Shown: positions 18,780-35,765, numbered from the stretch's first letter. The stretch is DNA of 41,813 nt from a bacterium (GCA_016931355.1 JAFGEX010000343.1:1-41813), one strand, 5' to 3'. The notes: generated by a model not told the origin, from the letters alone. Program-made: numbers and translations.

Positions 18780-19186
18780 TGATGCTCCAATCCCGGGGTG
18801 GGCCCCGGGGATCCGCTTGAAAACAAATCATGGATCCCGGGTTTTGATGCTTTCTGGTACTTTATGCATGGAGGAATCCTGTCTGGTGCACCGAATCACA
18901 GTTTTCCCGGGCACCCGGGATGACATTTCCTGGGATTCTTCAACCCCGGGGTTGACCCGGGAGATCGGGGTTGCACTCAGGAATCTTCGGGTGGATTCCC
19001 GATAAAAGATTTCTGGAATGACAGCAGGGTGATGCTCCCACCCCGGGGTGGACCCCGGGGTCTGTTCGACTCTGGATCCCGGATTTTGAGGTTCGCAGTC
19101 TCCTGGGGCATCAATGAATCATGACCGGAGCACAGAATCCACAAATCCGGCAGACCCGGGATGATTCTCCAACCCCGGGGTGCATC
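18780..19186. repeat. Degenerate direct duplication rich in ACCCCGGGGT palindromes
   Basis: GATGCTCC..CCCGGGGTGG.CCCCGGGG at 18781 and 19031; GATTCT.CAACCCCGGGGT at about 18934 and 19163; perfect palindromes at 18940-18955, 19038-19051 and 19051-19062. Confidence 0.75.
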
Positions 19187-19212
19187 TTCCAATTGATTTT
19201 CAAAAAAAAGTC

Positions 19213-19253: not shown

Positions 19254-19279
19254 CTTAAACGTTTTCGCTAACGATTAAG
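19254..19279. promoter_or_regulatory. Putative LacI-family operator(s)
   Basis: CTTAAACGTTTTCG and overlapping CGCTAACGATTAAG between the -10 box and the RBS; AAACGTTT is a LacI-type core. Confidence 0.5.
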
Positions 19280-19290
19280 GAGGACGGGAA

Positions 19291-19959
19291 ATGCCCCTTA
19301 AACGTTTGATTATTGGATTATTAGTCTGTATCCTGATCCCTGTTGAGTCATTCGGAAAATCCTGGACCTTCATTACAGGTGGCAGCTATGCGCAGAAATT
19401 TGGAGCGCAGAGCCAATACTGGAATGCAGGATTCAGCGCCGGCATATCCGGATTTCACCGTTTTTCCGATATCTGGTCCGCGGGACTGCGGCTGGGTTAC
19501 TGCCGCTGGACCCCGGACGGCTACAGGATGATGGACCTCGCCCCGCCGATACGCATGAAGGCCATTTACACGGTGCGCGTGGACGGAGTCGATTCCCTGG
19601 ATTATGACAATCTCTATCTGTTCGACAGCAAGTCCGGCGGTACAACGGTGCTGGAATTCGTTCCATCCGTCCGGTTCAAGGCGCTGAAGGATGCGGGCGA
19701 AACGCTGGCGCTGTCCGGGCAGGTTGGAGCCGGGCTTTTTATGATCCGCTCGGACGCCAGGGCGGTTGGAAGATACGGCCCGAATGTGGCGGAAGTCCGG
19801 CTGGATGAGGTGTCCGAGGTCAAACCGGGGATTCAACTGGGAATTTCCCTCGTGGTCAGGAAGCAGCTCGAATTCATGCCTCTGTGGACCTTTGTCTTCA
19901 CAGAATCGAATAGAAGATCCTATTTTCTGATGAACCTCGGATTCCTGTTTGAACTGTGA
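19291..19959 (+). CDS. Small outer-membrane beta-barrel protein
   Basis: RBS AAGGAGG, signal peptide, amphipathic strands, C-terminal MNLGFLFEL. Confidence 0.7.
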   Translation: MPLKRLIIGLLVCILIPVESFGKSWTFITGGSYAQKFGAQSQYWNAGFSAGISGFHRFSDIWSAGLRLGYCRWTPDGYRMMDLAPPIRMKAIYTVRVDGVDSLDYDNLYLFDSKSGGTTVLEFVPSVRFKALKDAGETLALSGQVGAGLFMIRSDARAVGRYGPNVAEVRLDEVSEVKPGIQLGISLVVRKQLEFMPLWTFVFTESNRRSYFLMNLGFLFEL

Positions 19960-20032
19960 TCCCGGCGCGGTCCGCTGCCGCGGCTTCCGCAGCAGCGCTT
20001 CAACCCGTTGGATGATTGGGAGACAAAAAGCC

Positions 20033-23000
20033 ATGAGTCGTTTCATCAATCGGATCGCAATGAGATGGGCCGTACTTCTGTTGGCCGCATGCCCGCTGTG
20101 GGCTCCCCGTTCGTTCTGCGCTACAACCGGCAAGATAGCCGGCCGGGTGACGGACGCCCAGACCGGGGATCCCCTGTCCGGGGCGAATGTGCTGGTTGTG
20201 GGGACAGCCCTGGGTGCGGCCTGCGACGGGGACGGGCGCTATTTCATCATCAATGTTCCGCCCGGCGTTTACGATATCCGCGTGAGCATGATGGGGTATG
20301 CGACCCTGACGAAAACCGGTGTCGAAGTGATGGTCAACCGGACCCAGGACATCCACTTCAACCTCAATCCCGCTGTGCTGGAGGGGCAGGAAGTGATTGT
20401 CGTGGCCGAGCGTCCGCTGGTGGAAATGGACGTGACCGGCAGCGAGATGGTGGTCAACGCCGCGGCCCTGGCGCGCACCCCCATCACGGAGATGGAGGAC
20501 GTGGTCCGGCAGCAGAGGGGCATTTTTTACACCGGGACGGTCACCTACATCCGGGGCGGCATCGGGAGCGAGGTTGCCTACAACATGGACGGCAATTCCA
20601 TGACCGGAGGCGTCCTGAGTGACAGCTGGAAGGGCATCAACACCACGGCCATACAGGAAGTATCCGTGATGACCGGAGGCTACAACGCGGAGTACGGAAA
20701 CGCCATGTCCGGCGTGGTCAATGTGGTGACCAAGGAGGCCAGGAGCGACCGGATCAACCTCAGCGGGACGCTCAAGTACAGGTACAGGCCGGCCGGCCAG
20801 TACCATTGGGGCCGGAACATGTTCGATCAAACGCTGAAAAAATACACGGATTTCGACCTGGCCTACTGGGAGAGCACGCTCGCGAAAAGGCCGGAAATGG
20901 GCGCCAACTATTTCAGGAGCTACTACGGCTGGCCGGAGGGCCGTACGCCGACCGTGGAGGAAGTGCATCAGGCCTTCCTGCATCAGGCGGACGGCAACAA
21001 AATACTGACGGATTACGTCAACCGGCCTGACCAGGAAGTGGAGGGAACCTTTTTCGGCTCTTTCGCCAGGAACACGAATTTCCTCCTTTCCGGAAATTAC
21101 AAGAAGGCCGTTTCGATCTATCCGACCCTCGAACCCTATCAGCCGGAATACAACGTGCAGGCCAAGTTCAACTGGCTCATATCCCCCAGCATCAAGCTGT
21201 CCTACAACCTGGTCAGCGGCTGGTACAAGAACTCGGCGTTCCGGCCGGACAACACGGCTACCAGCAGGGAGATGGGAACGGCCGGCGGCGGGGCTGTGCC
21301 GAACTGGATGCTCGATCCCTACATGGGGGGCGGTTACTGGTCCATGTGGGGCTCCACGTACGGCAGGGGCACGACCCGGTACAACATCGGCGTGCACACC
21401 TTGAAGTGGCAGCACACGCTGAGCCCTTCCACTTTTTACACCCTGAACCTGAATGTTTACCGGGACAGGATGTATATCATTCCGGACTATTCGCACGAGC
21501 GGCTTCCGGCTGCCAAGATCGACGAAAGCTGGGGCTGGCAGTCCCTCAACAACGCATTCAGCCTCGGCGGCGGGAGCCCCTATCCGTCCAATGTCCTGCG
21601 CTCCCAAAGCCTGTCTTTCGGCGGAGACCTCACCAGCCAGTTGCACAGGGCCCATCAGATCAAGAGCGGCGCGGTTCTCAAGCTGAACGACATGGATTAT
21701 GAGAGCATCGACGTGGCCCATTCCGGGATAGACAACTGCATTGTCACGACCAACATCTGGAAGGGGAGCCCGCTGGAAACGGCGTTCTACCTGCAGGACA
21801 AGATCGAATATTCCGGAATCACGCTGAACCTGGGCGTCCGCGTGGACGGATTCGACACGCGGCGGAAATTCCCGGAAAACCCGGTTTTCGATCCTCTCGG
21901 ACAGACCGCCGCATCGGGCTCGGACGGCCAGATGCCCACCAACAGCGCGGACCTGTGGTTCCTGAACCGCGATCTTCCGGATTACGCCCATTTTTACACG
22001 TATGACTCGCTCATGGCCGGCCTGGACCAGGCGGGCCTTTCCCGGGACGCCTGGATCCCCTCCATGCTGAGGGACCGCAACACGCTTTCCTCTGAATGGA
22101 AATGGGCGATTGCTCCCCGGATCGGAGTGTCCTTCCCGGTCACAGCCAGCTCGAAGATCCGGTTCAGCTACGGGCATTTCTATCAGAGGCCTGCCTGGAC
22201 CAAATTCTACGGCGCGCCGTTCCAGTTCACGCTTCCCTACAATAAAAAGACGCCGGATCCCCTGGCGGACGCGGCCGTGATTTTCCAGACGATTCATCCC
22301 GTGGGGGGCATGTACTGGGGCCAGCCTGGACTCACCTTTGAGAAGGCCATCCAATATGAATTCGGGTACGACCAGGATATTTTCGATGTCGTGCGACTCA
22401 ATTTGACCGCCTATTACAAGGACCAGACCCGCCTGACCCGGTTTTCGAACCGGCCCCTGCTGGATTACGGACAGGCGCATCAATTCGCTGCAGGCGGGGG
22501 CATCTCCCAGACCGGATTCGCGGGTGAGGACATCGCCATGGAGGTTGTGCCGGATCTCCAGAGGATGGGAAGCGGTTATGTGTACCTGTTCGCCAACGAC
22601 ATGTACAAGGATACGCGCGGCCTGGAATTAAACGTGGAGCGTCTTTTCAACAACCGCTGGTCCGCCTCCGTGACCTTCGACTACGGGTTGAGCTCCGGCG
22701 CCAAGTACGGATTCCAGTCCCTGAGCGCAAATCCGGAGGTCCAGTCCCTCATGGCGTTCGCGAACCAGGACGGCGAAACCAAGCTTCGCTGGCTCAGCAG
22801 TTACAAGCTCAAGGCCAATTTCAGCCTGGTCACGCCGAAAAAATTCCTGATCGCAATGGGGGACCTTTCCCTGGGATTGTACTACGAGTATTTCGCCGGA
22901 GACCAGTATACCTATTATGCAGTCGATTATACGGGCGTCCGGTATCCGGACAACAGGCGCTGGTACCCCCATCAGCGGACGGATCTGAAGATCAGCAAAC

Positions 23001-23224
23001 GGATCAAGTTCCGGGACATGAACACGGTATTGGGAGTCGACGTGATCAATTTGTTCAACAACTACGACCGTTATCTGCTCTCCGGCCAGGATCTGCAGAA
23101 CTGGGAGGAACAGGAGCAGATCCCCCTGCTCACACAAAGCGGGGAACCGCATGTCTGGCATTTTTACAGTTCCCTGTCCAATCCCAAACGGATGTTCTAT
23201 TTCACGGTCGCATTGGAATTTTAA
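20033..23224 (+). CDS. TonB-dependent receptor with N-terminal carboxypeptidase-regulatory-like domain
   Basis: TGKIAGRVTDAQTGDPLSGANV; plug motif GGYNAEYGNAMSGVVNVVTK; YLQDKIEY, APRIGVSFP, FSYGHFYQ; terminal F. Confidence 0.92.
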   Translation: MSRFINRIAMRWAVLLLAACPLWAPRSFCATTGKIAGRVTDAQTGDPLSGANVLVVGTALGAACDGDGRYFIINVPPGVYDIRVSMMGYATLTKTGVEVMVNRTQDIHFNLNPAVLEGQEVIVVAERPLVEMDVTGSEMVVNAAALARTPITEMEDVVRQQRGIFYTGTVTYIRGGIGSEVAYNMDGNSMTGGVLSDSWKGINTTAIQEVSVMTGGYNAEYGNAMSGVVNVVTKEARSDRINLSGTLKYRYRPAGQYHWGRNMFDQTLKKYTDFDLAYWESTLAKRPEMGANYFRSYYGWPEGRTPTVEEVHQAFLHQADGNKILTDYVNRPDQEVEGTFFGSFARNTNFLLSGNYKKAVSIYPTLEPYQPEYNVQAKFNWLISPSIKLSYNLVSGWYKNSAFRPDNTATSREMGTAGGGAVPNWMLDPYMGGGYWSMWGSTYGRGTTRYNIGVHTLKWQHTLSPSTFYTLNLNVYRDRMYIIPDYSHERLPAAKIDESWGWQSLNNAFSLGGGSPYPSNVLRSQSLSFGGDLTSQLHRAHQIKSGAVLKLNDMDYESIDVAHSGIDNCIVTTNIWKGSPLETAFYLQDKIEYSGITLNLGVRVDGFDTRRKFPENPVFDPLGQTAASGSDGQMPTNSADLWFLNRDLPDYAHFYTYDSLMAGLDQAGLSRDAWIPSMLRDRNTLSSEWKWAIAPRIGVSFPVTASSKIRFSYGHFYQRPAWTKFYGAPFQFTLPYNKKTPDPLADAAVIFQTIHPVGGMYWGQPGLTFEKAIQYEFGYDQDIFDVVRLNLTAYYKDQTRLTRFSNRPLLDYGQAHQFAAGGGISQTGFAGEDIAMEVVPDLQRMGSGYVYLFANDMYKDTRGLELNVERLFNNRWSASVTFDYGLSSGAKYGFQSLSANPEVQSLMAFANQDGETKLRWLSSYKLKANFSLVTPKKFLIAMGDLSLGLYYEYFAGDQYTYYAVDYTGVRYPDNRRWYPHQRTDLKISKRIKFRDMNTVLGVDVINLFNNYDRYLLSGQDLQNWEEQEQIPLLTQSGEPHVWHFYSSLSNPKRMFYFTVALEF

Positions 23225-23396
23225 CGCCGGATCGCCGCCGGTGATGCGGATTTGGGAGGCCTTGGTCCTTGAGGGAAAAGGGATAATGGCAGGCATATTC
23301 TGGAATCCGGCGCGCTTGGTTTCGGGCCGAACGGCATGTTCGAGCATTTTGACCAAACTGCAGGCCCAGCCTCAGGCAGAAAGCAAGGAGAGGTCC

Positions 23397-25541
23397 ATGA
23401 CGGATTTTAATTCCAAAAGACGACGGATCAGCGGAATCCTGCTGGTTATGATTGTCATGAGCGGATTCCACGCCTATTCCCAAACCCAGTTCCAGACGTT
23501 CGTACGTCTGAACCGGGGCCGGATGTGGTACGATCTCTTCAGCTACGGCGGTCACGGCGACCGGCTGCCCAATGACCGGTATTCCAGGCTGGACTATCCC
23601 GGATGCGCCTTTACGGCTGCGCGCCAGGTTTACAATCCCCTGATTCCCGAATACCCGGGGATGGACGGCTACATGTTCGCAGGGGAGGTCAACGACAGCC
23701 TGGTGCTGTACCGGATTCCCTTCAGGTCCGAATGGTTCAGGCCCCATGAAATTCTGGAGAAGAAAAAGGTGACGCTCAAGAACAATCTCAATCTTTCCAA
23801 GGAAGGGCCTGAACAGTCCGCGTCCGGAAGCGTTTTCCTGGTGTACTACGGCCTCGAAATGAGCTGGACCGCCATGGTCTGGAGCGCGGAGAAGTACGAC
23901 GATTTCATCATCTGGGAATACACCTTCTCCAATCCGGACACAGGCGCCTCAATCACCGGTTTCCGCTTCGCCCGCGCCTGCGAGATCAGCATCGGGTGCA
24001 ACACCGTGGACAACGCCTCCAGGCGCAGCAATACGGAAGACGATTACTTCGAGTGGGATCCGGCCCGGCAGCTCTTCTATTTCCGCGACGGCATCCAGCT
24101 CGATCCGTCCACGAACCAGCCCGTGGAACAGCCCTACGGATGGACCGGAAACGACCAGGGCGAGCCGTCGGATTACGAACACCCCGCTTCCATCACGCAT
24201 GATTTCAAGGCACCGCAGTATCTGACGTTCGCCTGGCTCTCACGGTCCAAGGAACCGGGCGAGCCCGATCACATGAACTGCACGGCCCGGTGGTTCTGGC
24301 CCCAGCCGCCCAACGAGGATGAAGGGACCTTCTGGTGGTTTCAGAGCGGGACGGACGACCCGTACATGCTGTCTCTGACCTATGACGAGCACCCGCCCCT
24401 GATCCGCGAGGAGGGGACGCCGATGCCAGCGGATTCCGTGCGGAACACGCCCCGGGCGAGGCGTTTTATCGACTGCTACCCCCTGTACATTTTCGAAACC
24501 GGGCCCTATGACATTGCCCCTGGAGAGAAGCTGAAGCTTGTCCTGGCCACGGTCGGCGGGCACATGGAATGGGAACGCGTGGCCAACTTGGTGAACAATG
24601 AGGATGACGCGCAGGAAAACGCCCGGCATCTGATAGACGGCAGGGCGCATCTGTTCGCGAACCTCGATGCGGCCAGGGAGCTGATGCAGAACCAGTACAG
24701 CTGTCCCTGCCCGCCGCCGACTCCGACTGCCATGGACAAGACCTACGATCTCAAAAAACCGGAAACAGTGGGCAACAATTCCCTGCTGGTCACGCCCCTG
24801 GTGAATGCGTGCAAGGTCCAGTGGTACCCCATCCCGACAGGGTACAAGGACAGGGATTACGCGATCAACGACGTGGCCGGCTACCGGATATACCGGTCCA
24901 GGTTTGATTGCTTCGGACCCTGGGAGCGCGTTCTGGAGATACCGGCCGATTCCGCGGACGCTTATCTGGATGCGGCAGAGGGGATGGAATCCGATTCGAT
25001 GATGACCTTTGTGGACGCGGATCTGGATCCCTCCAGGCCCCTCCATTACGTGGTCACGGCTTTTGACACGGGGCATGACGCGCCCTGGAAGCTGGACCGG
25101 ACAGGCGTATACGCCACGCTGCCCTCCCTGGAGAGCGCGAAGAACAATTTCAACGTGGTCCCGGTGTTCGCCCTGGGCCCGGCGGACAACGAAAATTTCC
25201 GGAACACGCTCCGCGTCTATCCGAATCCTTTCAAGCTGCACAGCCAGATACCCAACGAGCAATGGAAGCTGGATTTCGTGAATGTCCCCTCCCAATGCAC
25301 GATACGGATCTACACCCTGGCCGGGGACCTGGTCAATGTGCTGGAGCACAATGAAATTTCAGGCGTGCACGAATGGGCCAGCACCCATCATGCCGAGCTC
25401 GGCGTGCTGGTCGCCAAGGGACAGATGCTCAACCGGAACTGGCAGCGCGTGGTCCCTGGCATCTACATCTTCCATGTGGAGTCCCATGCGCCGGGGCACG
25501 AGGGAGAGAGCAAGATCGGAAAATTCGTGGTGATTCGTTAG
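23397..25541 (+). CDS. Secreted protein with Fn3-like segment and T9SS type-A/FlgD-like C-terminal domain
   Basis: Start after AAGGAG; signal peptide; GYRIYRS...YVVTAFD; C-terminus RVYPNPF...CTIRIYTLAGDLV...W...PGIYIFHV...GKFVVIR. Confidence 0.78.
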   Translation: MTDFNSKRRRISGILLVMIVMSGFHAYSQTQFQTFVRLNRGRMWYDLFSYGGHGDRLPNDRYSRLDYPGCAFTAARQVYNPLIPEYPGMDGYMFAGEVNDSLVLYRIPFRSEWFRPHEILEKKKVTLKNNLNLSKEGPEQSASGSVFLVYYGLEMSWTAMVWSAEKYDDFIIWEYTFSNPDTGASITGFRFARACEISIGCNTVDNASRRSNTEDDYFEWDPARQLFYFRDGIQLDPSTNQPVEQPYGWTGNDQGEPSDYEHPASITHDFKAPQYLTFAWLSRSKEPGEPDHMNCTARWFWPQPPNEDEGTFWWFQSGTDDPYMLSLTYDEHPPLIREEGTPMPADSVRNTPRARRFIDCYPLYIFETGPYDIAPGEKLKLVLATVGGHMEWERVANLVNNEDDAQENARHLIDGRAHLFANLDAARELMQNQYSCPCPPPTPTAMDKTYDLKKPETVGNNSLLVTPLVNACKVQWYPIPTGYKDRDYAINDVAGYRIYRSRFDCFGPWERVLEIPADSADAYLDAAEGMESDSMMTFVDADLDPSRPLHYVVTAFDTGHDAPWKLDRTGVYATLPSLESAKNNFNVVPVFALGPADNENFRNTLRVYPNPFKLHSQIPNEQWKLDFVNVPSQCTIRIYTLAGDLVNVLEHNEISGVHEWASTHHAELGVLVAKGQMLNRNWQRVVPGIYIFHVESHAPGHEGESKIGKFVVIR

Positions 25542-25555
25542 AGGAGAGCGGAAGC

Positions 25556-26572
25556 ATGACCCCCAAAATGCTTGTGCAGGCCGCGATGGCCGTCTGGATC
25601 GGAATCGCGGCGGGACACGCCCAGAACAGTAATTATGATTTCTCCCGGCTGGACCCGGTTTCTTTTTCCAGGGCGGGCTTGAGCGGGTGGCAGTTTCTCC
25701 ACCTCCCCGCGTCCGCGCGCAGCGCGGCCCTGGCAAACATCAAATGCGGCATGCTGGACAGCGACGCATCCGCTGTGTTTACGAATCCTTCGCGGCTGAC
25801 GGAAATCCGCAGCATCAGCGCCTCATTCACCCGGATCCGGTACATCGCGGACATCGGGTACATGACCGCTTCCGTGGCCAAAAATTTCGGGGCATGGGGG
25901 GTTTTCGGGATCTCCTTCGCCGGGCTGGACGCAGGGGAAATGATCCGGACCGAAAACCTTGTTTCAGGCGGCCGGAGCGGGGATCTGGGTACTTTCACGG
26001 CCGGGGACATCCTGCTGGGTGTCACCTATGCACGCCGCGTGACGGACCGGCTTTCCATCGGCGGGAACATCAACTATATCGAGGAGAATCTGGACGATGT
26101 GAAGGCCAGGAACTGGGATCTGGATTTCGGAGTAAGTTTTCAGACAGGCTTTCGCGGACTGCGCTTCGACCTCCTCACACGGAATTTCGGTCCGGACGTC
26201 CGTTTCGTGGGATTCACGGAGCAGTACCAGAACCCCGCGGACGTGCGCATGCCGCTGGATTTTTTCATGGGGATCGGAATGGATTTGGCGGGTGGCGGGG
26301 ATGCTGACAAACATACGCTGACTGGGTACCTGGAGGCCGGCCATCCGAACGACACGCCGGAAAGGCTGCATGCGGCCATGGAATACCGGTTTCGTGAATT
26401 TTTCAGCCTGCGGGGCGGATACAAATTCTTCTATGACGAGGCCGGCCTGACCCTCGGCTGCGGCCTTCAATATTATATTTCCGGAATCGAAGGAAGAATC
26501 GATTACGCATTCATGGATTACGGCCGCCTGAACTCGGTTCACCTGTTCACCCTCGGATTAAACATTCGATAA
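25556..26572 (+). CDS. PorV/PorQ family outer-membrane barrel
   Basis: G.SGWQFL.LP.SARSAALA, A.AVFTNPS.L, LRGGYKF, DYAF.DYGRL..VHLFTL; RBS GAGGAG. Confidence 0.85.
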   Translation: MTPKMLVQAAMAVWIGIAAGHAQNSNYDFSRLDPVSFSRAGLSGWQFLHLPASARSAALANIKCGMLDSDASAVFTNPSRLTEIRSISASFTRIRYIADIGYMTASVAKNFGAWGVFGISFAGLDAGEMIRTENLVSGGRSGDLGTFTAGDILLGVTYARRVTDRLSIGGNINYIEENLDDVKARNWDLDFGVSFQTGFRGLRFDLLTRNFGPDVRFVGFTEQYQNPADVRMPLDFFMGIGMDLAGGGDADKHTLTGYLEAGHPNDTPERLHAAMEYRFREFFSLRGGYKFFYDEAGLTLGCGLQYYISGIEGRIDYAFMDYGRLNSVHLFTLGLNIR

Positions 26573-26655
26573 TCATCAAAAAATTCCGGAAATTCAGAAA
26601 GAATTTTACGGATATTCAAGGTGACGACTGTTGATTTTTGCATTTCGAAAGATTT

Positions 26656-26807
26656 CGAATCTCTCCTCTGGCCTGTTCCCCGCGATCTGCCGCGCGGGAG
26701 CGGGCGCGAGAACGGTCCGGATCACTGCGACGCATCTTCAAGGCGCGTCGCAGTTCACGAAACTGCGGATCGAAGATTCCCCGCCTTTTGAAGCGGTGAG
26801 CTTCAAT
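26656..26807 (+). repeat. Family-1 repeat, degenerate copy with inserted hairpin
   Basis: Right end GATCGAAGATTCCCCGCC...GAGCTTCAAT; internal stem ACTGCGACGC/GCGTCGCAGT. Confidence 0.7.
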
Positions 26808-26832
26808 CCAATAACGGATTGAAAGGACTTCC

Positions 26833-27846
26833 ATGAGAAGCAAAAAGGTGACTCTCAAAATGATCGCCGAGCAGCTCGGCATGACGCCCGCCACCATTTC
26901 CAAGGCCCTGCGGGACAGCACGGACATATCGGAGGAAACGAAGCGGCGCGTCAAGGAAGTTGCGGACAATCTGGGATATCATCCCAATCTCATGGCGCGC
27001 AGCCTGGTTCAGAGGAGAAGCTATCTGCTCGGCGTGATGGTGCCCGATCTGCGCATTTCCTTTTTTTCGGAAGCGGTCCGGGGCATTTACGAAAGAGCCC
27101 GCGAAAAAGGATACGAGGCCATTATTGTGGTCAACGACGAGGATCTCGAGAACGAGGAGCGGAACCTCAAATTCCTGGCCGCCCTGCCCGTGGACGGGAT
27201 CCTCATCAATGCAGTCCCTGCCACGACCAACTGCAGGCTCATGCAGCGCATGCGGGACCAGGGCATCCCGTTCGTGAGCTGGGACAGGACCATCGACGGA
27301 TTCGATACGAGCTCTGTGACCATAGACGACGAGGCTGCAGCTTTTGAAGTCATGGAATATTTTGTGAAAAACGGCCGAAGGGACATCCTGTTCCTGGGAC
27401 CCACGGACCACCCTTCAGTCGTACGCGGCAGATACAACGGCTTCTGCAAAGGCAGGAACCTATTCGGCATCCCGGAAAGAGCGGACCGCGTCGCGACCTG
27501 CAAAATTGATTATGAGGCTGCCCGGGACACGATGCAGCGCGTTCTGGAGTCGGGCATCCGGCCGGATGCCGTGCTCTGCGTCGGCGGCCTGATCGCCCAC
27601 GGAGCGGGCAGGGCCATTCTGGACGCCGGGCTCAGGATACCGCAGGACATCCTGCTGGCGGAGTTCGGGGACAACGACGTGGTGGCCAGGCTCGGGGTAC
27701 CCTTCGTCACCATCCATCAATTCCCGCTCGAAATCGGACGCAGGGCAGTGGACATCCTGCTCGAGGAGATTGATCTCAAGCCGCGGCCGCATGCGTATCA
27801 TCATGAGATCATCCCGGCAAAACTGCTGGAGCGAACCCTGGGCTGA
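26833..27846 (+). CDS. LacI family transcriptional regulator
   Basis: VTLKMIAEQLGMTPATISKAL HTH, GYHPN..ARSL, sugar-binding domain. Confidence 0.95.
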   Translation: MRSKKVTLKMIAEQLGMTPATISKALRDSTDISEETKRRVKEVADNLGYHPNLMARSLVQRRSYLLGVMVPDLRISFFSEAVRGIYERAREKGYEAIIVVNDEDLENEERNLKFLAALPVDGILINAVPATTNCRLMQRMRDQGIPFVSWDRTIDGFDTSSVTIDDEAAAFEVMEYFVKNGRRDILFLGPTDHPSVVRGRYNGFCKGRNLFGIPERADRVATCKIDYEAARDTMQRVLESGIRPDAVLCVGGLIAHGAGRAILDAGLRIPQDILLAEFGDNDVVARLGVPFVTIHQFPLEIGRRAVDILLEEIDLKPRPHAYHHEIIPAKLLERTLG

Positions 27847-27877
27847 CCGGGGCGCACCGTTTCTTTCCTTCCCGATT

Positions 27878-28021
27878 TTGAAATCCGGCGGCGGGCCCTT
27901 TCCCCGGGGCTTTCCGCTGGGCTTGCCCCGGGCCTTGTCCCGCGGCAAGCGGGCGAATGCGAACAGCCATTTTTCCTGAAGATCAAAAATTCTCCGGAAG
28001 CCGGCTTCCGGGGGGCTTCAA
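27878..28021 (+). repeat. Family-1 repeat, degenerate copy
   Basis: TTGAAATCC...GGGCTTGCCCC...AAGCGGGCGAAT...GATCAAAAATTCTCCGG...GGGGCTTCAA. Confidence 0.65.
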
Positions 28022-28155
28022 AAACACCTTCACTCTTCTTCTGTACTACGAAAACGCGGGGATACTTCTTTCCCTCCCAAATGGAGGCCGTTGCGATTTT
28101 CCTTGCGGAATTGACTGAATTCCATTATTTTATACTGTTTTTACGGAGGATGGAC

Positions 28156-28271
28156 CGAATCGGACGGCGCGCGCATTTTCCGCGGCTTGCCGCGGGGCGT
28201 ATAAGCGTCTATTCATGTCTTATCCTTGCAGATCGAAGATTCTTCTCCGGGAGCTGCCGGGGAGATTCAAT
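28156..28271 (+). repeat. Family-1 repeat, full copy just upstream of the MFS gene
   Basis: GAATCGGACGGCGCGCGCATT...CCGCGGCTTGCCGCGG...ATGTCTT...GCAGATCGAAGATTC...GGGGAGATTCAAT. Confidence 0.8.
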
Positions 28272-28291
28272 TATAGGTAGGTAATAGTTAT

Positions 28292-29473
28292 ATGTCCATG
28301 CCTGCCAAGCGGGCCATCCGAATCAATTATTTCTTTTTCGCATTCGCCATGGGGGGCGCATTCCCCTACCTGGCTCCGTATTTCAAGGAAAATCTCGGCG
28401 TCACCGATTATACGCTGGGCCTGCTGCTCATGCTGAGGCCTGCAGTGGCCATTCTGTCCCAGCCTTTCTGGAGCTATTTCGCGGACAGGCACGGCCACAG
28501 GGCGCGCATAGCGGCCGGCCTGGCCGTGGCGGCCGGCGTTCTGTTCCCGCTCGTCTGGTTGGCCAGACCCATGGGCCTGTTGGTACTGGCCATCATGGCC
28601 TTTGCCTTCTTCAATGCCCCGCTCAACACGCTTGCAGACAGCCTGACCTTCGACTATCTCGGCCATCACAAGCGGATGCGTTTCGCCAATTTCCGCATTT
28701 TTGCATCGCTCGGTTTCGTCACAGCCGTGGCACTGATCGGCAAGGTGTACGACCGGTTCGGCATCCATTGGCTGTTCGCCGCGTATTCGATCAGCACCCT
28801 GATCGCGGTCTTTTTTCTCCTGAAAATCCCCTCCAACGGCAATTCGAGACCCTCCAGCTCCGGATGGAAAGAACTCGTGCTCCTGCTGCGGAAGCGGAAC
28901 GTGCTGCTCTTCCTGATATCCGTGCTGCTTGTCGAGACGGCAAACCAGATGTCCCACGCCTATCTGAGCGTGTACGGCAAGGCGCTGGGCGCCAATAATG
29001 CGCAGGCCGGATGGATCTGGGCTGTGGCGACACTGGCGGAAATGGTGACCATGTACCATTTCTCGAAGATAGCGGGTCGGCACGGCATCTGGAACATCCT
29101 TGCCGTGGGCATGGGAACCGCCATCCTCCGCTGGACGCTTTTCGCGTTCATGCGCGTCTGGTGGCAGCTTATCCCGCTGCAGCTCATGCATATCTTCACA
29201 TTGACCTTCGTGTATGTCGGATCCGCCATTTTTATGGATCTGGAAAGCCCGGCCTCGATACGCTTCACGGCCCAGGCCTTTTACAGCACATTCGTGCTCA
29301 ACGCCGGCATGATCATCGGCAGCATCGCGGGCGGAGCCATCGCGCATCGCTGGGGCTATTCGTCGATTTTCCTGTTTTCCGGGGGATTGTCGCTGATCGG
29401 CACCCTGGTCTTCATCCTGTTCGTCAAACCGCCGCAGGCCCATGAATCCCACGGGCAACCGGTTCAGGCATGA
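28292..29473 (+). CDS. MFS transporter (MFS_1-like, sugar/nucleoside type)
   Basis: About 12 TM segments; QPFWSYFADR, F.NFRIFASLGF, RFTAQAFY. Confidence 0.9.
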   Translation: MSMPAKRAIRINYFFFAFAMGGAFPYLAPYFKENLGVTDYTLGLLLMLRPAVAILSQPFWSYFADRHGHRARIAAGLAVAAGVLFPLVWLARPMGLLVLAIMAFAFFNAPLNTLADSLTFDYLGHHKRMRFANFRIFASLGFVTAVALIGKVYDRFGIHWLFAAYSISTLIAVFFLLKIPSNGNSRPSSSGWKELVLLLRKRNVLLFLISVLLVETANQMSHAYLSVYGKALGANNAQAGWIWAVATLAEMVTMYHFSKIAGRHGIWNILAVGMGTAILRWTLFAFMRVWWQLIPLQLMHIFTLTFVYVGSAIFMDLESPASIRFTAQAFYSTFVLNAGMIIGSIAGGAIAHRWGYSSIFLFSGGLSLIGTLVFILFVKPPQAHESHGQPVQA

Positions 29474-29491: not shown

Positions 29492-30250
29492 CTATCCGCC
29501 GAAATCCACCAGAAGCACATTTTTAAAGGAATAGACGGACCGGACCACGCCTTCGGGCGGCCGTGTGTCGTGGAGGTTATTGAAGCTCAATGAGATCGAG
29601 AAGCGTTTGGAAATCCGCATCAGGAAATCCGTTTGCGAGGCTGTCCTGAAGTCCGCCGGATCATCGATGCGGGGCTGAAAATAAGTGGTCTGAACCAGAG
29701 TGACGATGTCCGACAGCTTCCAGGTCCAGGAGGCATAGCTGCTCAGGCGGAATTGATCGGCGATGATGCCGGCCGTCTCCAGTTCCTCGTGTTCGAACAT
29801 GGGCAGGGCCGCCAGATAAAGACGGAATGATTCCACCGCGACGATCCGGAACCGCGGGCCCGCGCCCAGAAGTCCCCTGAAACGGACCGCCAGGATCTTG
29901 TTGGACTGCGCCTGCGTGAACGCCTCAGCCGTGAACCAGGGCCTGAACTTACGGTTGAAACGAAAATGCACGAACCCCGAGTTTGAAAAGTCCGAACGGT
30001 CCGCACGCAAAAATCCGTAATCGGCCAGAAACAGCGACAGGGTGCGCTGCGTCTTGAACTGGACGTGGAACCTTCCGCTCAGATTCAGCACCTGTTTCTG
30101 GTTCTTGATGATGTCGAAGGAGACCCTGGCGTTTCCGGACCAGCCGGTGGTATCCGTGCGGATGCGCTCCTGCTCGATGTTGAGGACCTGGCCTGATGAG
30201 GCCCCGGCCAGGATGGAGAAAAAGATGAAGGCAAGAAACGGCTTGTTCAT
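29492..30250 (-). CDS. DUF481-like outer-membrane beta-barrel protein
   Basis: Start MNKPF, signal peptide then QVLNIE..R; GFVHFRFN, EAFTQ, GAGPRF, YFQPR motifs. Confidence 0.75.
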   Translation of the reverse strand: MNKPFLAFIFFSILAGASSGQVLNIEQERIRTDTTGWSGNARVSFDIIKNQKQVLNLSGRFHVQFKTQRTLSLFLADYGFLRADRSDFSNSGFVHFRFNRKFRPWFTAEAFTQAQSNKILAVRFRGLLGAGPRFRIVAVESFRLYLAALPMFEHEELETAGIIADQFRLSSYASWTWKLSDIVTLVQTTYFQPRIDDPADFRTASQTDFLMRISKRFSISLSFNNLHDTRPPEGVVRSVYSFKNVLLVDFGG

Positions 30251-30308
30251 GGGTGTACCCGAACGGGATGCGGATGAGGGAGAAGAAGCGCAATCCGTCC
30301 CGCGGCGG

Positions 30309-30391
30309 ATTGAAGCACCCCGGTATCGTGCCGCCGGGGGATAGTCGATCGGCAAGGATGATCACTTTTGTATTTGTTTGCGGTCAGATCA
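30309..30391 (-). repeat. Family-1 repeat, reverse copy
   Basis: ATTGAAGCACCCCGG...CCGGGGGATAGTCGATC...CGGTCAGATCA is the reverse complement of the consensus ends. Confidence 0.65.
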
Positions 30392-31468
30392 TCTCTTGAC
30401 CCGCGCATTCCCCTCCCAGATGCTCCAGATTTCCTCTTCATCCGCGGGCTGCGCGTAATCGGTGAGCAGGGTAGTGGCCAGCGCGCCGCCGGCCCAGCCG
30501 AATTGAACCCATTTTTCAGGCTCCCATCCCCTGAGCACAGCGTGGAGAAGGCCGCCCACAAACGCGTCCCCGCCTCCGATGCGGTCGAGCACGGCGATTT
30601 CGCGCGGCCCCACGACATGCCAGCTGTCCCCTGCATACAGGATGGCGCCCCATTTGTGCAGGTTGGCGTTCACGACTTCGCGCAGGGTTGTGGCGAATAC
30701 GGACGCTGCGGGATAGGCTTTCCTGACCCGTCCGATCATTTCCTTGAAGCTGTCGATCTTGCCCGCCAGCCCCTTGCCGCCCGCCTCGGGCCCCTCGATC
30801 CCCAGGGCCAGCTGGAAGTCCTCCTCGTTCCCCACGAGGATATCCGCAGATCCGGCGATCTGGTGGAAAATGTCCCTGAGTTCCTTCTGCCGGTTTTTCC
30901 AGAACGAGGCCCTGTAGTTGAGGTCGAATGAGATTCGGGTACCGTGCTTTTTCGCTGCCTTCGCCAGCCCCAGGCAGAATTCGCCTGTTTCCGGTGAAAG
31001 TGCTGCGATCAGGCCGGACAGGTGCAGGATCTGCACGCCTTCCTTTCCGAAGATGCGCTCCAGATCGAAATCCCTGACGTTCAGCGTGCGGCCCACCTCG
31101 CCGGCGCGGTCGTTGTGCACGCGCGGGCCGCGCGAACCTTTCCCGCTGTCCGCGATGTTGAACTGATGCCGGAATCCCCACGGGCCGCCCTGTTCGACCT
31201 CTTTGCCTTCGACATCCATGTGCCGGCCCGCGAGATCGTCCTTGATCAGGCGCGCCACCGGGCTGCCCTTGACGAATGTGGTGAGCACCTTCACGCGCAT
31301 GCCGAGAAACGCAGGGATGCTCGCCACATTCGTTTCAGCGCTGGTGGCCTGGAGGAAGAAGTTCCTGCTTGCGTGCACGGGCTGTCCTTCTGCAGGCGTG
31401 ATTCGCACGCCCATGCTCGAAGGCACGAGCAGGGCATATCGCGAGTCTTTGCGGAGTTCCATGTCCAT
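30389..31468 (-). CDS. PfkB family sugar kinase (KdgK-like)
   Basis: SAETNVA, ISFDLNYRASFW, GNEEDF, DRIGGGDAF PfkB signature. Confidence 0.88.
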   Translation of the reverse strand: MDMELRKDSRYALLVPSSMGVRITPAEGQPVHASRNFFLQATSAETNVASIPAFLGMRVKVLTTFVKGSPVARLIKDDLAGRHMDVEGKEVEQGGPWGFRHQFNIADSGKGSRGPRVHNDRAGEVGRTLNVRDFDLERIFGKEGVQILHLSGLIAALSPETGEFCLGLAKAAKKHGTRISFDLNYRASFWKNRQKELRDIFHQIAGSADILVGNEEDFQLALGIEGPEAGGKGLAGKIDSFKEMIGRVRKAYPAASVFATTLREVVNANLHKWGAILYAGDSWHVVGPREIAVLDRIGGGDAFVGGLLHAVLRGWEPEKWVQFGWAGGALATTLLTDYAQPADEEEIWSIWEGNARVKR

Positions 31469-31495
31469 CCTTTCGGTTCGGGCGACCCCGGGGTA

Positions 31496-31545
31496 CTGAC
31501 AATTCCGGGGCTTGCCCCGGAATCAGCGAGCGAATCCAAATGTCT
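31496..31545 (+). repeat. Family-1 repeat, partial left/central copy
   Basis: CTGACAATTCCGGGGCTTGCCCCGGAATCAGCGAGCGAATCCAAATGTCT. Confidence 0.7.
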
Positions 31546-31616
31546 ACATCCAAACGGACCCCGGGGTACAATCCGGGACGCTGAAACTGCGACGCAACTC
31601 GAAATTGCGACGCATT

Positions 31617-33101
31617 TCAGCCGGCGAACGGATTCTCAGTCGGGTAATACGTCCCCTTCGGCAGGTTGAAGGAAATGTCCGGTACGCCGAGCGCCTTCAT
31701 GACTTCGAAAATGGATTTGCCCGCATGCCGGAACGCGACCGCCGTGTGATGCGGGAAGCGTTTTTCGATCAGCACATGGCGGTAGAAACGTCCCATTTCC
31801 CGCACCGCGAAGATGCCGATCCCGCCGAAGGATTTGGGATCCAGGTCCAGAACCTCCGCCTCCGCGATATAACCCTTGAGCTGCGTGTCCGCAGTGGACT
31901 GGATGCGGAATATCGTGGCTTCGCCCGGCCGGATCCGGCCTTCGAGCGTGCCGCGCGTGATGTCCGGATTCTTCCCCGGCTCCATGAGCCGGTGCATGAT
32001 GAGCTGGTATTTCATCTCGATGTTCGCCATGCATGAGGCGGGCGTATTCCCGCAGTGGAACCCCATGAACAGGTCGGTCGGCTTGTAGTCCCCCACGGTT
32101 TTCCTGCCCGCCTCGATCAGGTCATAGGGCACCGTATTGTTGATGTCCAGTAAAGTGGCGGGCATTTCCGTGACGCAGCCGGCCACATATTCGCTGAGCA
32201 CGCCGTATATGTCCACTTCGCAGGAAACGGGTATGCCGCGGCCGGCCAGCCTGGAATTCACGTAGCAGGGCACGAATCCGAAGTATTTCTCGAAAGACGG
32301 CCAGCATTTGTTTGCGAAAACGCCGTATTCTGAGGCGCCGAGATTTTTTTCCATGAAATGGAGCAGTGCCACCTCGTGCTGGGCCAGCTTTTTCAGAATG
32401 TCCGGATGCTTGTTCCCGACACCGAGTTCCTTTGCCATGTCCTTTGCAACAGCCTCGATTTCCGCGCTGTCCTTTGCGGACAGGAAGGCATCGTACAGAT
32501 CCAGTTCGCTGTTCTCCATGATTTCGACGCCCAGGTCGTAGAGCGCCTTGACGGGCGCATTGCAGGCGAGGAAATCCTGCGGCCTGGGACCGAACGAAAA
32601 AATCTTCAGCCTGCGCAGGCCCAGCAGGGCGCGTGCAACAGGCATGAAATCCGCGATCATGCCAGCGATTTCATCCGGCGTTCCGACCGGATACTCCGGG
32701 ATGTAGGGGCGCAGCTTCCTGAGCCCGATGTTGTAGGAGGCGTTCAGCATGCCGCAATAGGCATCCCCGCGGCCTCCGACCAGGTCCTTCCCCGTCTCCT
32801 CCGCAGCAGCCGCGAACATGACCGGGCCGCCGAATTTCTGCGCCAGCAGGGTTTCAGGGCCTTCGGGCCCGAAATTCCCCAGATAAACGAGCAGGGCGTT
32901 GACGCCTTCCTTCTCGATTTCCTTCAATGCCTTGAGCGCATCCGCTTCGTTTTCAACCGTTGTCTTGAGCTCTGTGACAGGGATTTTCTTCGCCTTGCAT
33001 GCTGCGGCGACAAGGGAGCGCCGCTTCTGGGAAAGCTCGATGGGGAAGCAGTCCCGGCTGACCGCCGTGATTCCCATGCGAACCTGGGGGACATTGTTCA
33101 T
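31617..33101 (-). CDS. L-fucose/L-arabinose isomerase-family protein
   Basis: VSRDCFP, YLGNFGPE, RGDAYCG, NKCWP, CEVDIYG, MGFHCGN, FPHHTAV; RBS AGGAG. Confidence 0.85.
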   Translation of the reverse strand: MNNVPQVRMGITAVSRDCFPIELSQKRRSLVAAACKAKKIPVTELKTTVENEADALKALKEIEKEGVNALLVYLGNFGPEGPETLLAQKFGGPVMFAAAAEETGKDLVGGRGDAYCGMLNASYNIGLRKLRPYIPEYPVGTPDEIAGMIADFMPVARALLGLRRLKIFSFGPRPQDFLACNAPVKALYDLGVEIMENSELDLYDAFLSAKDSAEIEAVAKDMAKELGVGNKHPDILKKLAQHEVALLHFMEKNLGASEYGVFANKCWPSFEKYFGFVPCYVNSRLAGRGIPVSCEVDIYGVLSEYVAGCVTEMPATLLDINNTVPYDLIEAGRKTVGDYKPTDLFMGFHCGNTPASCMANIEMKYQLIMHRLMEPGKNPDITRGTLEGRIRPGEATIFRIQSTADTQLKGYIAEAEVLDLDPKSFGGIGIFAVREMGRFYRHVLIEKRFPHHTAVAFRHAGKSIFEVMKALGVPDISFNLPKGTYYPTENPFAG

Positions 33102-33117
33102 GTGTATTCTCCTGTTT

Positions 33118-33209
33118 TTTTAATCTCTAAGGGTAAAATTCGCCTCCTGGGGGTCATTGTGTTTTGGATTTTCGCTTGATACCCCACTGCCTGCAGCGGA
33201 GCGGTTCAT
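33118..33209 (+). repeat. Family-2 hairpin repeat
   Basis: TTTTAATCTCTAAGGGTAAAAT...GATACCCCACTGCCTGCAGCGGAGCGGTTCAT aligns with 35671-35765. Confidence 0.6.
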
Positions 33210-33294
33210 GCGATGCGTGTATCATTCCCCGCTTCCCGGGGCTGATGATGTTTCCGGTTTTCTTTTACTGCCCCGCTTCCTGCTGCAGGGGCAA

Positions 33295-35660: not shown

Positions 35661-35670
35661 GTCTTCCCCG

Positions 35671-35765
35671 TTTTAATCTCTATGGATCAAATGACCCGCC
35701 CTTCGGGGCGCGTCCTGTTTCCCTCGTTTTTGGGCACGCCGCTGCTTGCGGCGGGATCGTTCATT
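35671..35765 (+). repeat. Family-2 hairpin repeat
   Basis: TTTTAATCTCTATGGATCAAATGACCCGCCCTTCGGGGCG...CCGCTGCTTGCGGCGGGATCGTTCATT. Confidence 0.6.

Follow-up and report, generated by a model that had tools for sequence, protein, structure and literature searches.

Organisation of the locus

The window, by which we mean the whole 41.8-kb (41,813 nt) stretch of bacterial DNA that was analysed, contains six co-oriented open reading frames, all confirmed on the + strand between positions 19291 and 29473 in the order described in the first-pass annotation (Table 1). The central gene encodes a 714-residue protein, here called X, and the reading frame of the barrel that follows opens 15 nt past its stop codon. 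Pfam and NCBIfam searches found no glycoside-hydrolase family among the six genes, in agreement with the earlier reading that the unit contains neither SusD nor a recognisable glycoside hydrolase.

Table 1. Features of the locus and their positions in the window.
Feature	Position	Strand	Description
Two exact TTAAACGTTT boxes	19255-19264 and 19298-19307	.	Candidate operators, operon head
Small signal-peptide protein	19291..19959	+	222 aa; no family; nearest clusters OMP_b-brl-type
TonB-dependent receptor (TBDR)	20030..23224	+	1064 aa; CarbopepD_reg_2 + Plug
X	23397-25541	+	714 aa; no Pfam/NCBIfam family
X signal peptide, residues 1-29	23397..23483	+	Read from sequence
X head, residues 30-460	23484..24776	+	Predicted galactose-mutarotase-like beta-supersandwich
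X stalk, residues 461-602	24777..25202	+	PPPTP linker + fibronectin-III-like domain
X tail, residues 603-714	25203..25541	+	T9SS-type C-terminal beta-sandwich domain (CTD), special subtype
PorV/PorQ-family outer-membrane barrel	25556..26572	+	338 aa; NF033709 above cut-off
LacI-family repressor	26833..27846	+	LacI HTH + Peripla_BP_1
MFS permease	28292..29473	+	MFS_1_like PF12832

The six genes had been read as one unit. The TBDR, X and the barrel do form a conserved core, but the small barrel, the LacI protein and the MFS permease are, as judged by tblastn (E <= 1e-4) in 73 related loci, local additions outside it (0/73, 7/73 and 0/73 respectively).

The reading frame of the TBDR is open from a TTG at 19949, with the ATG at 20030 as its likely start. 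It scores 67.6 bits with CarbopepD_reg_2 (PF13715) and 32 bits with Plug (PF07715, cut-off 23.9), while its barrel region matches no Pfam barrel family at E 0.01. Length, plug position and homologues are all consistent with a TBDR, and the protein is probably a receptor in which a carboxypeptidase-regulatory-like N-terminal domain and a plug precede a barrel of divergent sequence. Membership of the SusC/RagA family was rejected, the TIGR04056 score being 69.5 bits against a cut-off of 368.25 and the match being confined to profile positions 2-356 of 981, the N-terminal part.

The tail of X

The tail carries the motif previously quoted for it (VYPNPF ... CTIRIYTLAGDLV ... PGIYIFHVES ... GKFVVIR). 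It had been called a T9SS-like CTD; the VYPNPF...GKF motifs are indeed present, but the domain falls below the curated thresholds for both type A and type B and most resembles the tails of PorU and PorZ. As a type-A CTD it was rejected at 18.9 bits with PF18962 (E 0.0018, cut-off 27) over the first 40 of 75 profile positions. It did not match TIGR04183 (type A, cut-off 23 bits) at E 0.1 and is absent from the 150 genome matches to that model, which include only one of the 16 X-type tails of the genome (C309). As a type-B CTD it was rejected at 12.5 bits with PF13585 (CHU_C, cut-off 27); three paralogous X proteins reach 18.5-21 bits. When a profile of the CTD was compared with 177,635 PDB sequences, the only matches at E < 0.01 were the CTDs of PorU (6za2_A residues 1083-1154, E 4.1e-4) and PorZ (5m11_A residues 669-758, E 4.7e-4). 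These matches and the VYPNPF ... G.Y ... GKF.IIK motifs mark the tail as a divergent relative of the T9SS CTD fold.

The review PMC10202324 describes the CTDs of PorU and PorZ as being kept on the protein, where PorV and PorQ bind them. The likeness of the X tail to these domains, the docking model discussed below and the conservation of the tail, which is the least divergent part of X (mean p-distance 0.447), suggest that the X CTD may also be retained uncleaved. With the window CTD below the type-A and type-B thresholds, X is best regarded as a putative T9SS substrate. The presence of sprA had been proposed as a check on the translocon: the lineage does possess a T9SS translocon, SprA being above its cut-off in 19 of 20 relatives, and PorU (865 bits) and PorV are found in this genome. 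SprA itself, like rpoB, is absent from this 84%-complete assembly. Searches for GldL, GldM and GldN found none, and those for GldK returned generic matches only, results that are uninformative since the models are Bacteroidia-based and the controls were silent.

The adjoining barrel and predicted docking

The barrel, in which a signal peptide (residues 1-22) was recognised by eye, belongs to the PorV_fam family, with 160 bits to NF033709 (cut-off 90) over profile positions 3-326 of 326, and a profile built from 27 of its orthologues matches PorV (6h3i_F, E 9.4e-9). It was rejected as PorV proper (NF033710 equivalog, 42.7 bits against 250), as PorQ proper (NF033711 equivalog, 103 bits against 220) and as PorP/SprF, there being no TIGR03519 match at E <= 1e-5 (cut-off 90.55; 26.9 and 27.7 bits in two paralogues). 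The barrel on contig C334 is the single one of 22 compared that passes the PorV equivalog (253.8 bits against 250), and by this score it is the general PorV of the genome. The nearest PorQ candidate (C64) lies below the cut-off at 184.6 bits, and all 16 barrels adjoining X-type proteins reach PorV_fam only. The suggestion that the barrel is a locus-specific PorV paralogue, not the general shuttle, is thus borne out.

A complex model of the CTD with the barrel gave a median ipSAE of 0.90 over three runs, the best of three controls scoring 0.00. Of 157 solved complexes 116 attain that mark, and of 215 mismatched pairs 2 do. The runs share no less than 72% of their contacts, with partner pLDDT of at least 68, and the predicted contacts include the conserved VYPNPF, YTLAGDLV, VVPGIYI and C-terminal GKFVVIR segments. 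The X CTD is therefore predicted by the model, as had been anticipated, to dock on the PorV-like barrel beside it; the score covers the cognate barrel only and is silent on cognate specificity, and the good result may stem from a resemblance to PorV assemblies whose structures are known (6h3i, 8gl* entries).

The head and stalk of X

The start codon of X is backed by alignment with 11 homologues. A signal peptide recognisable by eye, with no cysteine in it, points to a secreted non-lipoprotein, probably cleaved before a Gln. X matches no Pfam or NCBIfam family at E 0.01, enzyme families included. The structure model of the head (pLDDT 82.5, pTM 0.89) places a hairpin and a long helix after a beta-supersandwich and shows no catalytic (alpha/alpha)6 domain beyond them. 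Its best structural matches (Z 17.9-15.3, with 234-278 residues aligned at 3.3-4.6 A) all fall on the non-catalytic domain at the N-terminus of GH94, GH149, GH116, GH15 and GH65 enzymes (for example residues 130-450 of 5nz7_A and 19-352 of 6ggy_A); Foldseek returned the same targets. X was rejected as an enzyme of these types, its supersandwich being followed by helix, linker, FN3 and CTD and by no (alpha/alpha)6 domain. With no family match, and with the leading Foldseek and structure matches confined to non-catalytic domains, X cannot be recognised as an enzyme.

Some true enzymes have a mutarotase-like fold as well, and the head matches galactose mutarotases and some lyase/hydrolase domains at Z 10.6-12.3. 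Alignment with homologues revealed invariant acidic and aromatic residues in the head (W162, Y167, D168, D215, W220, D231). The model suggests a carbohydrate-binding-type beta-supersandwich fold for the head, which is variable between copies. The stalk shows a fibronectin-III-like pattern (GYRIYRS ... GPW ... Y.VT..D) and, in a low-confidence full-length model, matches the FNIII pairs 7y6e and 6x3a; P437, P439, P440, P443, Y496, Y499, G507-W509, Y551, V553, T554 and D557 are invariant in its alignment. Profile positions 355-675 are the most widely shared part of X.

Conservation and co-divergence

An HMM search found the X-type CTD in 16 ORFs of the genome, each followed 3' on the same strand by a PorV_fam barrel, either immediately or after one other gene. 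The gap between the two is within about 200 nt in 14 copies, and one small ORF intervenes in C229 and C42. A TBDR lies directly 5' of X in ten copies, the remaining six being cut by contig ends. Of 73 related loci in other genomes, 71 keep the order TBDR-X-barrel and the remaining two are truncated at contig ends; TBDR orthologues (25-48% identity) lie directly 5' of X in 72/73, and barrel orthologues (31-60% identity) directly 3' in 72/73. These records come from many relatives of Bacteroidetes, among their labels being Marinimicrobia, KSB1, Caldithrix, Ignavibacteria, Latescibacterota, Melioribacter and Rhodothermales. A count of triads had been called for in the first-pass annotation; with about 16 copies in the genome and these 71 loci elsewhere, the arrangement is far beyond chance. 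The X profile matches 5340 cluster representatives at E <= 1e-3, a number that falls to 2287 at E <= 1e-10, and the CTD subtype is present in all 151 sampled genomes of the phylum (best E <= 1e-20 in 145).

SusD/RagB (PF07980) has no match in X or in the 84%-complete genome, so the description of the locus as SusD-less stands, but SusD occurs in 57 of the 151 sampled genomes of the phylum (1-6 matches each). The triad is therefore not simply a tool of bacteria that lack SusD.

Co-divergence of the parts, a check also proposed beforehand, was measured by partial Mantel tests on 66 triads. The head of X tracks the TBDR given the barrel (r = 0.859) and shows little association with the barrel given the TBDR (r = 0.163); the tail tracks the barrel given the TBDR (r = 0.551) and shows little association with the TBDR given the head (r = 0.103), a pattern that falls short of proving contact and could stem from similar rates and saturation, the TBDR and head both being fast and the tail and barrel both slower, and from relatedness.

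A proposed uptake module and its alternatives

We propose, with a probability of roughly 0.6, that the three core proteins make up an outer-membrane module for nutrient uptake, in which tethered X captures substrate for the TBDR. The X CTD would not be removed but would stay docked on its dedicated PorV/PorQ-type barrel, much as the PorU and PorZ tails do, tethering X non-covalently to the cell surface through the FN3 and proline-linker stalk. The variable head would then capture substrate and pass it to the co-encoded TBDR, the job done by SusD/SGBP lipoproteins in Bacteroidia. The order of the genes and how well it is kept, the family memberships, the pairing of each CTD of this subtype with one barrel and the fold of the head are established here, and docking is supported by a model. 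We infer that the CTD is retained, that X is exposed at the surface, that its head contacts the TBDR and that the substrate is a carbohydrate or other sugar-containing compound. In this copy the LacI repressor would control the operon, with candidate operators at 19255 and 19298, and the MFS permease would move the product through the inner membrane.

A different and rather unlikely explanation is that the barrel serves purely as a private shuttle or export adaptor, X then being released or attached elsewhere and working independently of the TBDR, for instance as a binding protein or enzyme in free form, with the gene linkage reflecting co-regulation only. PorV is a shuttle, and PorP/SprF is needed to secrete neighbouring type-B cargo, according to PMC10202324; the CTD-barrel model speaks of binding and not of permanence. 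However, a fixed gene order across several phylum-level labels, and head-TBDR co-divergence as tight as that seen when the barrel is accounted for, both exceed what is usual for co-regulation, and the tail, the most conserved part of X, resembles the retained CTDs of PorU and PorZ and not ordinary cleaved ones.

Somewhat less probable still is that X is anchored by the barrel as a surface enzyme, its head being a lyase, hydrolase or epimerase that cuts or converts substrate for the TBDR. The fold shared with galactose mutarotases and some lyase/hydrolase domains, the invariant acidic and aromatic residues of the head and the fact that the unit encodes no other enzyme are in keeping with this, but the best matches are all non-catalytic N-terminal domains of enzymes whose catalytic domain X does not have, and neither Pfam nor NCBIfam assigns an enzyme family. 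That the barrel is an unrelated FadL-type channel which itself imports a hydrophobic or small substrate, its adjacency unconnected to the tail of X, is very improbable: PorV is a FadL homologue (PMC12578637), but the special CTD subtype is paired with a barrel in 16/16 cases in the genome, the docking model has clean controls, and tail and barrel co-diverge.

Relation to known systems

The uptake module proposed here combines known parts in a new way, namely T9SS barrel-docking and a TonB transporter, and a search of the published literature found no description of a TBDR-X-barrel triad. The cassette probably equips the importer with a partner for capture at the cell surface, in a hitherto undescribed way.

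Close known counterparts are PorZ-PorQ and PorU-PorV of the Porphyromonas gingivalis T9SS attachment complex, in which a T9SS-exported protein keeps its CTD and is held at the surface by a PorV-family barrel (PMC10202324). The barrel here falls in the same NCBIfam subfamily, and in the PDB the CTDs of PorU and PorZ are the sole matches to the CTD profile of its partner. Unlike those pairs, the X-barrel pair lies outside the secretion machinery, occurs about 16-fold per genome, has barrels below the PorV and PorQ equivalog cut-offs, and in each copy carries its own variable head and is linked to a TonB-dependent receptor. Cargo and barrel genes also adjoin in type-B CTD systems with PorP/SprF-like barrels (SprB-SprF of Flavobacterium johnsoniae; PG1035-PorP). 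The type-B cargo CTD is probably uncleaved, and the cognate PorP/SprF-like barrel has been proposed as the cargo anchor (PMC10202324, which lists Gorasia 2022, PMC9143113, among its references). These pairs differ from the triad in the family of the barrel, in the type of CTD (that of X is not CHU_C) and in having no TonB receptor.

The SusC/SusD (RagA/RagB) and BtuB/BtuG-type pairs of Bacteroidia share with the triad a TonB-dependent transporter of about 1000 residues with a carboxypeptidase-regulatory-like N-terminus, an adjoining surface protein, a regulated sugar-utilisation locus and the division into capture and import that is proposed here. SusD acts as a lid on SusC. In contrast, the TBDR here fails the SusC model, X is unrelated to SusD, and X, probably no lipoprotein, would be held via its secretion tail by a third protein, the barrel. 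The BAM complex of Bacteroides thetaiotaomicron contains the pair BamG-BamH, in which the extracellular loops of a 14-stranded FadL/PorV-like barrel bind a surface-exposed protein (PMC12578637); BamH, however, is part of the BAM machine and not CTD-bearing T9SS cargo, and has no TonB receptor link, so that the principle alone is held in common.

Local additions and sugar context

Neither Pfam nor NCBIfam has a match to the small 222-aa protein, which also lacks a paralogue in the genome. A protein language model places it nearest to OMP beta-barrel clusters (0.97), and it is probably a small outer-membrane beta-barrel. The LacI protein meets Pfam gathering thresholds (PF00356, 41.8 bits; PF00532, 94.9 bits), its best partial NCBIfam likenesses being to RbsR, CytR and UriR, each below cut-off, and it is probably the local regulator. 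The two TTAAACGTTT boxes, 43 bp apart, are the only exact copies in the window and may resemble LacI-type AANCGNTT cores; as candidate LacI-family operators they are statistically weak, 10 of 100 shuffles yielding at least 3 matches at 1 mismatch. The MFS permease also meets gathering thresholds (PF12832, 184.7 bits; PF03825, 81.4 bits), is nucleoside/oligosaccharide:H+ symporter-like and probably provides the inner-membrane step. Orthologous loci carry RhaT-like or SSF permeases in its place, together with a PfkB kinase, and more distant related loci carry GH115, SSF and SDR genes. Pentose or deoxyhexose catabolic genes adjoin the unit.

Composition and conservation of the cassette

The six forward-strand genes that the first-pass annotation had drawn over 19291-29473 are all present, and a sugar catabolic cluster follows on the reverse strand. 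The TonB-dependent receptor (TBDR), whose ORF is open already from a TTG at 19949, scores 69.5 bits against the SusC model TIGR04056, for which the cut-off is 368. Next comes a secreted protein, here called X, made up of a head (residues 30-460), a stalk (461-602) and a tail, the C-terminal domain or CTD (603-714). Judged by eye, its N-terminus is a signal peptide without cysteine, and its C-terminus bears the tail motif already quoted in the annotation. The gap from X to the start of the PorV/PorQ-family barrel is 15 nt. The small signal-peptide protein at the head of the operon, which is separate from this barrel, lies nearest to protein-language-model clusters of outer-membrane beta-barrels (0.97). 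The first residue after the predicted signal-peptide cut is Gln in X, in its homologues and in the barrel (AYS/QTQ, LYS/QDF, GHA/QNS; 23397-23490 and 25556-25630); the 'Q-rule' for Gln after cleavage is said in one paper (PMC5837995) to hold in Bacteroidetes and not in the whole FCB group (Fibrobacterota-Chlorobiota-Bacteroidota).

Features of the operon and of the gene cluster beyond it
Feature	Position	Strand	Description
Small signal-peptide protein	19291-19959	+	222 aa; no Pfam/NCBIfam family
TonB-dependent receptor (TBDR)	20030-23224	+	1064 aa; CarbopepD_reg_2 67.6 bits, Plug 32 bits
X	23397-25541	+	714 aa; no Pfam/NCBIfam family
Barrel	25556-26572	+	338 aa; PorV/PorQ subfamily 160 bits (cut-off 90)
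LacI regulator	26833-27846	+	337 aa; LacI family
MFS permease	28292-29473	+	393 aa; MFS_1_like
Sugar catabolic cluster	29492-36795	-	DUF481 barrel, PfkB kinase, class II aldolase/epimerase, second LacI; fucose/arabinose-isomerase-like Fucose_iso_C-type gene (494 aa), FGGY kinase (556 aa)

One genome per species was scanned by pattern and tblastn, which returned 199 relatives of X, and 73 loci were kept. The first-pass annotation had staked its reading on conservation of the triad, and tblastn with the window's proteins found TBDR, X and barrel in this order at 71 of the 73, the two exceptions (L030 and L092) being cut by contig ends. The record labels among triad loci include Rhodothermales MAGs, Marinimicrobia, KSB1, Caldithrix, Ignavibacteria, Latescibacterota and Melioribacter. 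Neither the small barrel nor the MFS permease, both of which had been counted as members of the unit, was found at a related locus (0/73 each), and they are rejected as core parts; a LacI homologue was present at seven.

When a profile of X was searched against 1.84 billion cluster representatives the number of matches was 5340 at E <= 1e-3 and fell to 2287 at 1e-10 and to 280 at 1e-30; what is widely shared is the C-terminal half (profile positions 355-675). A broad profile of the tail alone, built on a 36-row alignment, was matched in all 151 sampled genomes of the phylum Zhuqueibacterota (149/149 without the two unpublished genomes, G087 and G144), with a best E <= 1e-20 in 145; at most 32 matches were scored in each genome, and the per-genome numbers are therefore not to be taken as copy numbers. 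In the window's genome it gave 29 matches compared with 16 for a narrow HMM made from residues 603-714 of X and 11 homologues, which indicates that the broad profile also touches other CTDs.

Copies in the genome of origin

Each of the 16 ORFs matched by the narrow HMM is followed on its own strand by a PorV_fam barrel, at a distance of about 200 nt or less in 14; on contigs C229 and C42 one small ORF separates the two. In ten cases the gene immediately before X encodes a TBDR paralogue, and in the other six the contig ends in or just before X. The complete members of this set are 640-1280 aa long, and a Pfam search of the 16 proteins found no family, with CHU_C sub-threshold in three. The genome holds 150 matches to the type-A CTD, among which a single cassette tail, that on contig C309, is included. 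The co-occurrence of tail and barrel in 16/16, together with the presence of only 1/16 tails among the type-A matches, argues that a special tail is paired one to one with a private barrel, apart from the bulk of type IX secretion system (T9SS) cargo.

Other barrels of this genome have different neighbours. On contig C17 (L016:2992-7476) a PorV_fam barrel (172 bits) adjoins a 1117-aa FG-GAP/DUF7619 protein with a tail above the type-B CHU_C cut-off (34.3 bits), a barrel-cargo pair without a TonB receptor. On contig C152 (L019:2-7851) the order is a 1965-aa protein whose tail is weakly FlgD_ig-like, a 651-aa protein in which a PorV_fam barrel (103 bits) is fused to TPR repeats, and a SpoIIE/HATPase/TPR signalling protein. 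A 1583-aa ORF at C412:2754-8625, with a CTD and a partial PorU-like match (228 bits, profile positions 63-738), directly precedes a weak PorV_fam barrel (69.9 bits); the two may form a second sortase-like or PorZ-like pair.

The tail and its barrel

The annotation had taken the barrel to be a locus-specific paralogue, and the family models bear this out. Of the 22 PorV_fam matches over the cut-off in the window's genome, all of which were tested, only the barrel on contig C334 passes the equivalog threshold for PorV (253.8 against 250) and is the general PorV, while the nearest approach to PorQ is made by that on contig C64 (184.6 against a cut-off of 220). The barrels of the 16 cassettes pass the subfamily model alone, at 150-214 bits. 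They were also considered as NF052325 (PorVQ2), the NCBI-curated equivalog 'putative type IX sorting system protein PorV2', and this was rejected at 39-82 bits against a cut-off of 325. A profile of 27 orthologous barrels matches PorV (6h3i_F) with an E of 9.4e-9.

On its own the tail of X stays below the cut-off of 27 bits for either class, with 18.9 bits for type A (PF18962) and 12.5 for type B (PF13585). Searched with a profile built from 36 tails, 177,635 PDB sequences gave just two matches at E < 0.01, namely the CTDs of PorU (6za2_A residues 1083-1154, E 4.1e-4) and PorZ (5m11_A residues 669-758, E 4.7e-4). The review PMC10202324 names these two as the T9SS proteins that keep their CTDs, which remain attached to PorV and PorQ, and suggests that such CTDs are shielded from cleavage by cognate PorV-like barrels.

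Docking of the CTD on the PorV-like barrel, as the first-pass annotation had proposed, is predicted by modelling. Barrel residues 23-338 and X residues 581-714, each with a custom 27-row alignment, gave ipSAE values of 0.91, 0.90 and 0.90 in three runs with the cognate barrel only, the best of three controls being 0.00. Contact agreement between runs was at least 72% and partner pLDDT at least 68. The docking mark used is reached by 116/157 solved complexes and 2/215 mismatched pairs, although a pass may partly be recall of likeness because PorV assemblies have already been solved. The predicted contact residues of X (606-611, 639-646, 683-689 and 707-714) correspond to the conserved VYPNPF, YTLAGDLV and VVPGIYI motifs and the C-terminus. 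By hand count, invariant or nearly invariant positions make up 17/36 of the CTD contacts (about 12.5 expected) and 12/45 of the barrel contacts (about 7.5 expected), modest excesses that are not used as evidence.

The head of X

A full-length model of X was poor (pLDDT 60.5) and was replaced by one of residues 30-460 alone, based on a 62-row alignment (pLDDT 82.5, pTM 0.89). In a structural search against representatives the top matches to this head (Z 17.9-15.3, 234-278 residues aligned, rmsd 3.3-4.6 A) in every case covered the non-catalytic beta-supersandwich at the N-terminus of cyclic glucan synthase or of a GH94, GH116, GH15, GH65 or related enzyme; lower scores were obtained with GH149 (Z 13.9) and with galactose mutarotase-like proteins (Z about 11), and Foldseek agreed. 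An identity as a glycoside phosphorylase is rejected, since the match is confined to the non-catalytic domain. The head is followed in X by a long helix, then a PPPTP linker and an FN3-like domain, and last the tail; there is no catalytic domain after it, and the view that it is not a known enzyme stands.

Co-divergence of head, tail, receptor and barrel was examined in 66 triads, made up of that in the window, 60 of the 73 related loci (13 were left out as having an ORF cut, a start missing or a length under the limit) and five complete paralogous triads of the window's genome. All pairwise p-distance matrices are correlated at r = 0.93-0.98, and mean divergence rises from the tail (0.447) through the barrel (0.547) and the TBDR (0.615) to the head (0.667). 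In partial Mantel tests the head tracks the TBDR when the barrel is controlled for (r 0.859) and the barrel little when the TBDR is controlled for (r 0.163); the tail tracks the barrel with the TBDR controlled for (r 0.551) and the TBDR little with the head controlled for (r 0.103). This split, drawn from sequence distances, is consistent with joint action of head and receptor on one side and of tail and barrel on the other; the pattern is a hint and not proof, because relatedness and similar rates of change could yield the same.

The secretion apparatus

The annotation had also called for a check of the genome for T9SS genes. The window's genome has PorU (865 bits) and one PorV equivalog, and of 20 relatives at family or order level 19 have SprA above the cut-off. 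SprA is weakly matched here (39.7 bits) and is counted with rpoB as not found in the 84%-complete assembly; as rpoB is missing too, gaps explain such absences, and absences in this genome are not to be trusted. GldK has generic matches alone (50-61 bits). The GldL, GldM, GldN and SprA_N models had no match in the genome, nor had GldM in 21 relatives, and in both cases control genomes were silent too, so that absence is not shown.

A possible capture partner for the receptor

SusC/SusD glycan capture is the paradigm of nutrient uptake in Bacteroidia. In agreement with the reported lack of SusD in the unit, SusD_RagB has no match in the window's genome (84% complete). In the phylum sample SusD occurs in 57/151 genomes (55/149 without the two unpublished ones), with 1-6 matches each; the triad is the dominant, not the exclusive, arrangement there. 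We know of no account of how TonB transporters are loaded in Marinimicrobia/SAR406, Latescibacterota, KSB1, Ignavibacteria, Calditrichota and other related environmental phyla.

The first-pass reading, in which a locus-specific PorV paralogue holds a CTD protein on the surface, is partly supported as a whole; that the tethered protein serves as lid or capture partner of the receptor is what we infer. More broadly, and with a probability of roughly 40%, the TBDR capture partner in FCB relatives outside Bacteroidia would be a T9SS-secreted protein rather than a lipoprotein, its uncleaved PorU/PorZ-type tail plugged into a private PorV-like barrel. The result would be a three-component complex of transporter, head and anchor, with dozens of specificities per genome, which may represent an older solution, or a parallel one, to the problem solved by SusD. 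The X family has thousands of members, and the cassette lies within sugar-utilisation loci. If this reading is correct, the T9SS principle of docking on a barrel gains a second, much larger use, and the triad becomes a marker for predicting the substrate-uptake loci of uncultured carbon-cycling bacteria as well as a modular head-and-anchor system for the display of proteins on the cell surface.

Full-text searches in the main text of open-access papers yielded no description of a unit of TBDR, CTD protein and PorV-like barrel. In PMC6987092 Rmar_1070, within a xylan locus of Rhodothermus marinus, is listed as a TonB-dependent receptor and after it come two hypothetical proteins, without interpretation; the three genes (Rmar_1070-1072) may be a triad. 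Passages of the Caldithrix genome paper (PMC5317091) do not mention the triad.

Neighbouring genes, substrate and regulation

At orthologous loci, where X is about 38% identical, the neighbours are regulators of LacI or GntR type, a PfkB kinase, a RhaT-like permease, an FGE-sulfatase-domain protein and a URO-D-like protein, with an ADP-ribosylglycohydrolase in one, and more distant loci carry GH115, SSF and SDR genes. The module is thus embedded in sugar-utilisation loci of varying specificity. In the window, whatever the triad imports may be processed further by the reverse-strand cluster. The best likenesses of the LacI protein, all below their cut-offs, are to RbsR, CytR and UriR, and the MFS permease is similar to symporters of the nucleoside and oligosaccharide:H+ kind; our guess at the substrate of this copy is a pentose- or ribose-containing compound.

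The only exact TTAAACGTTT boxes of the window are the two at 19255 and 19298; the statistics are weak. The 760-nt gap upstream of the operon is filled by four copies of a GC-rich palindromic motif of about 31 nt (..CCCCGGGGTGG.CCCCGGGG..), at 18780-19192.
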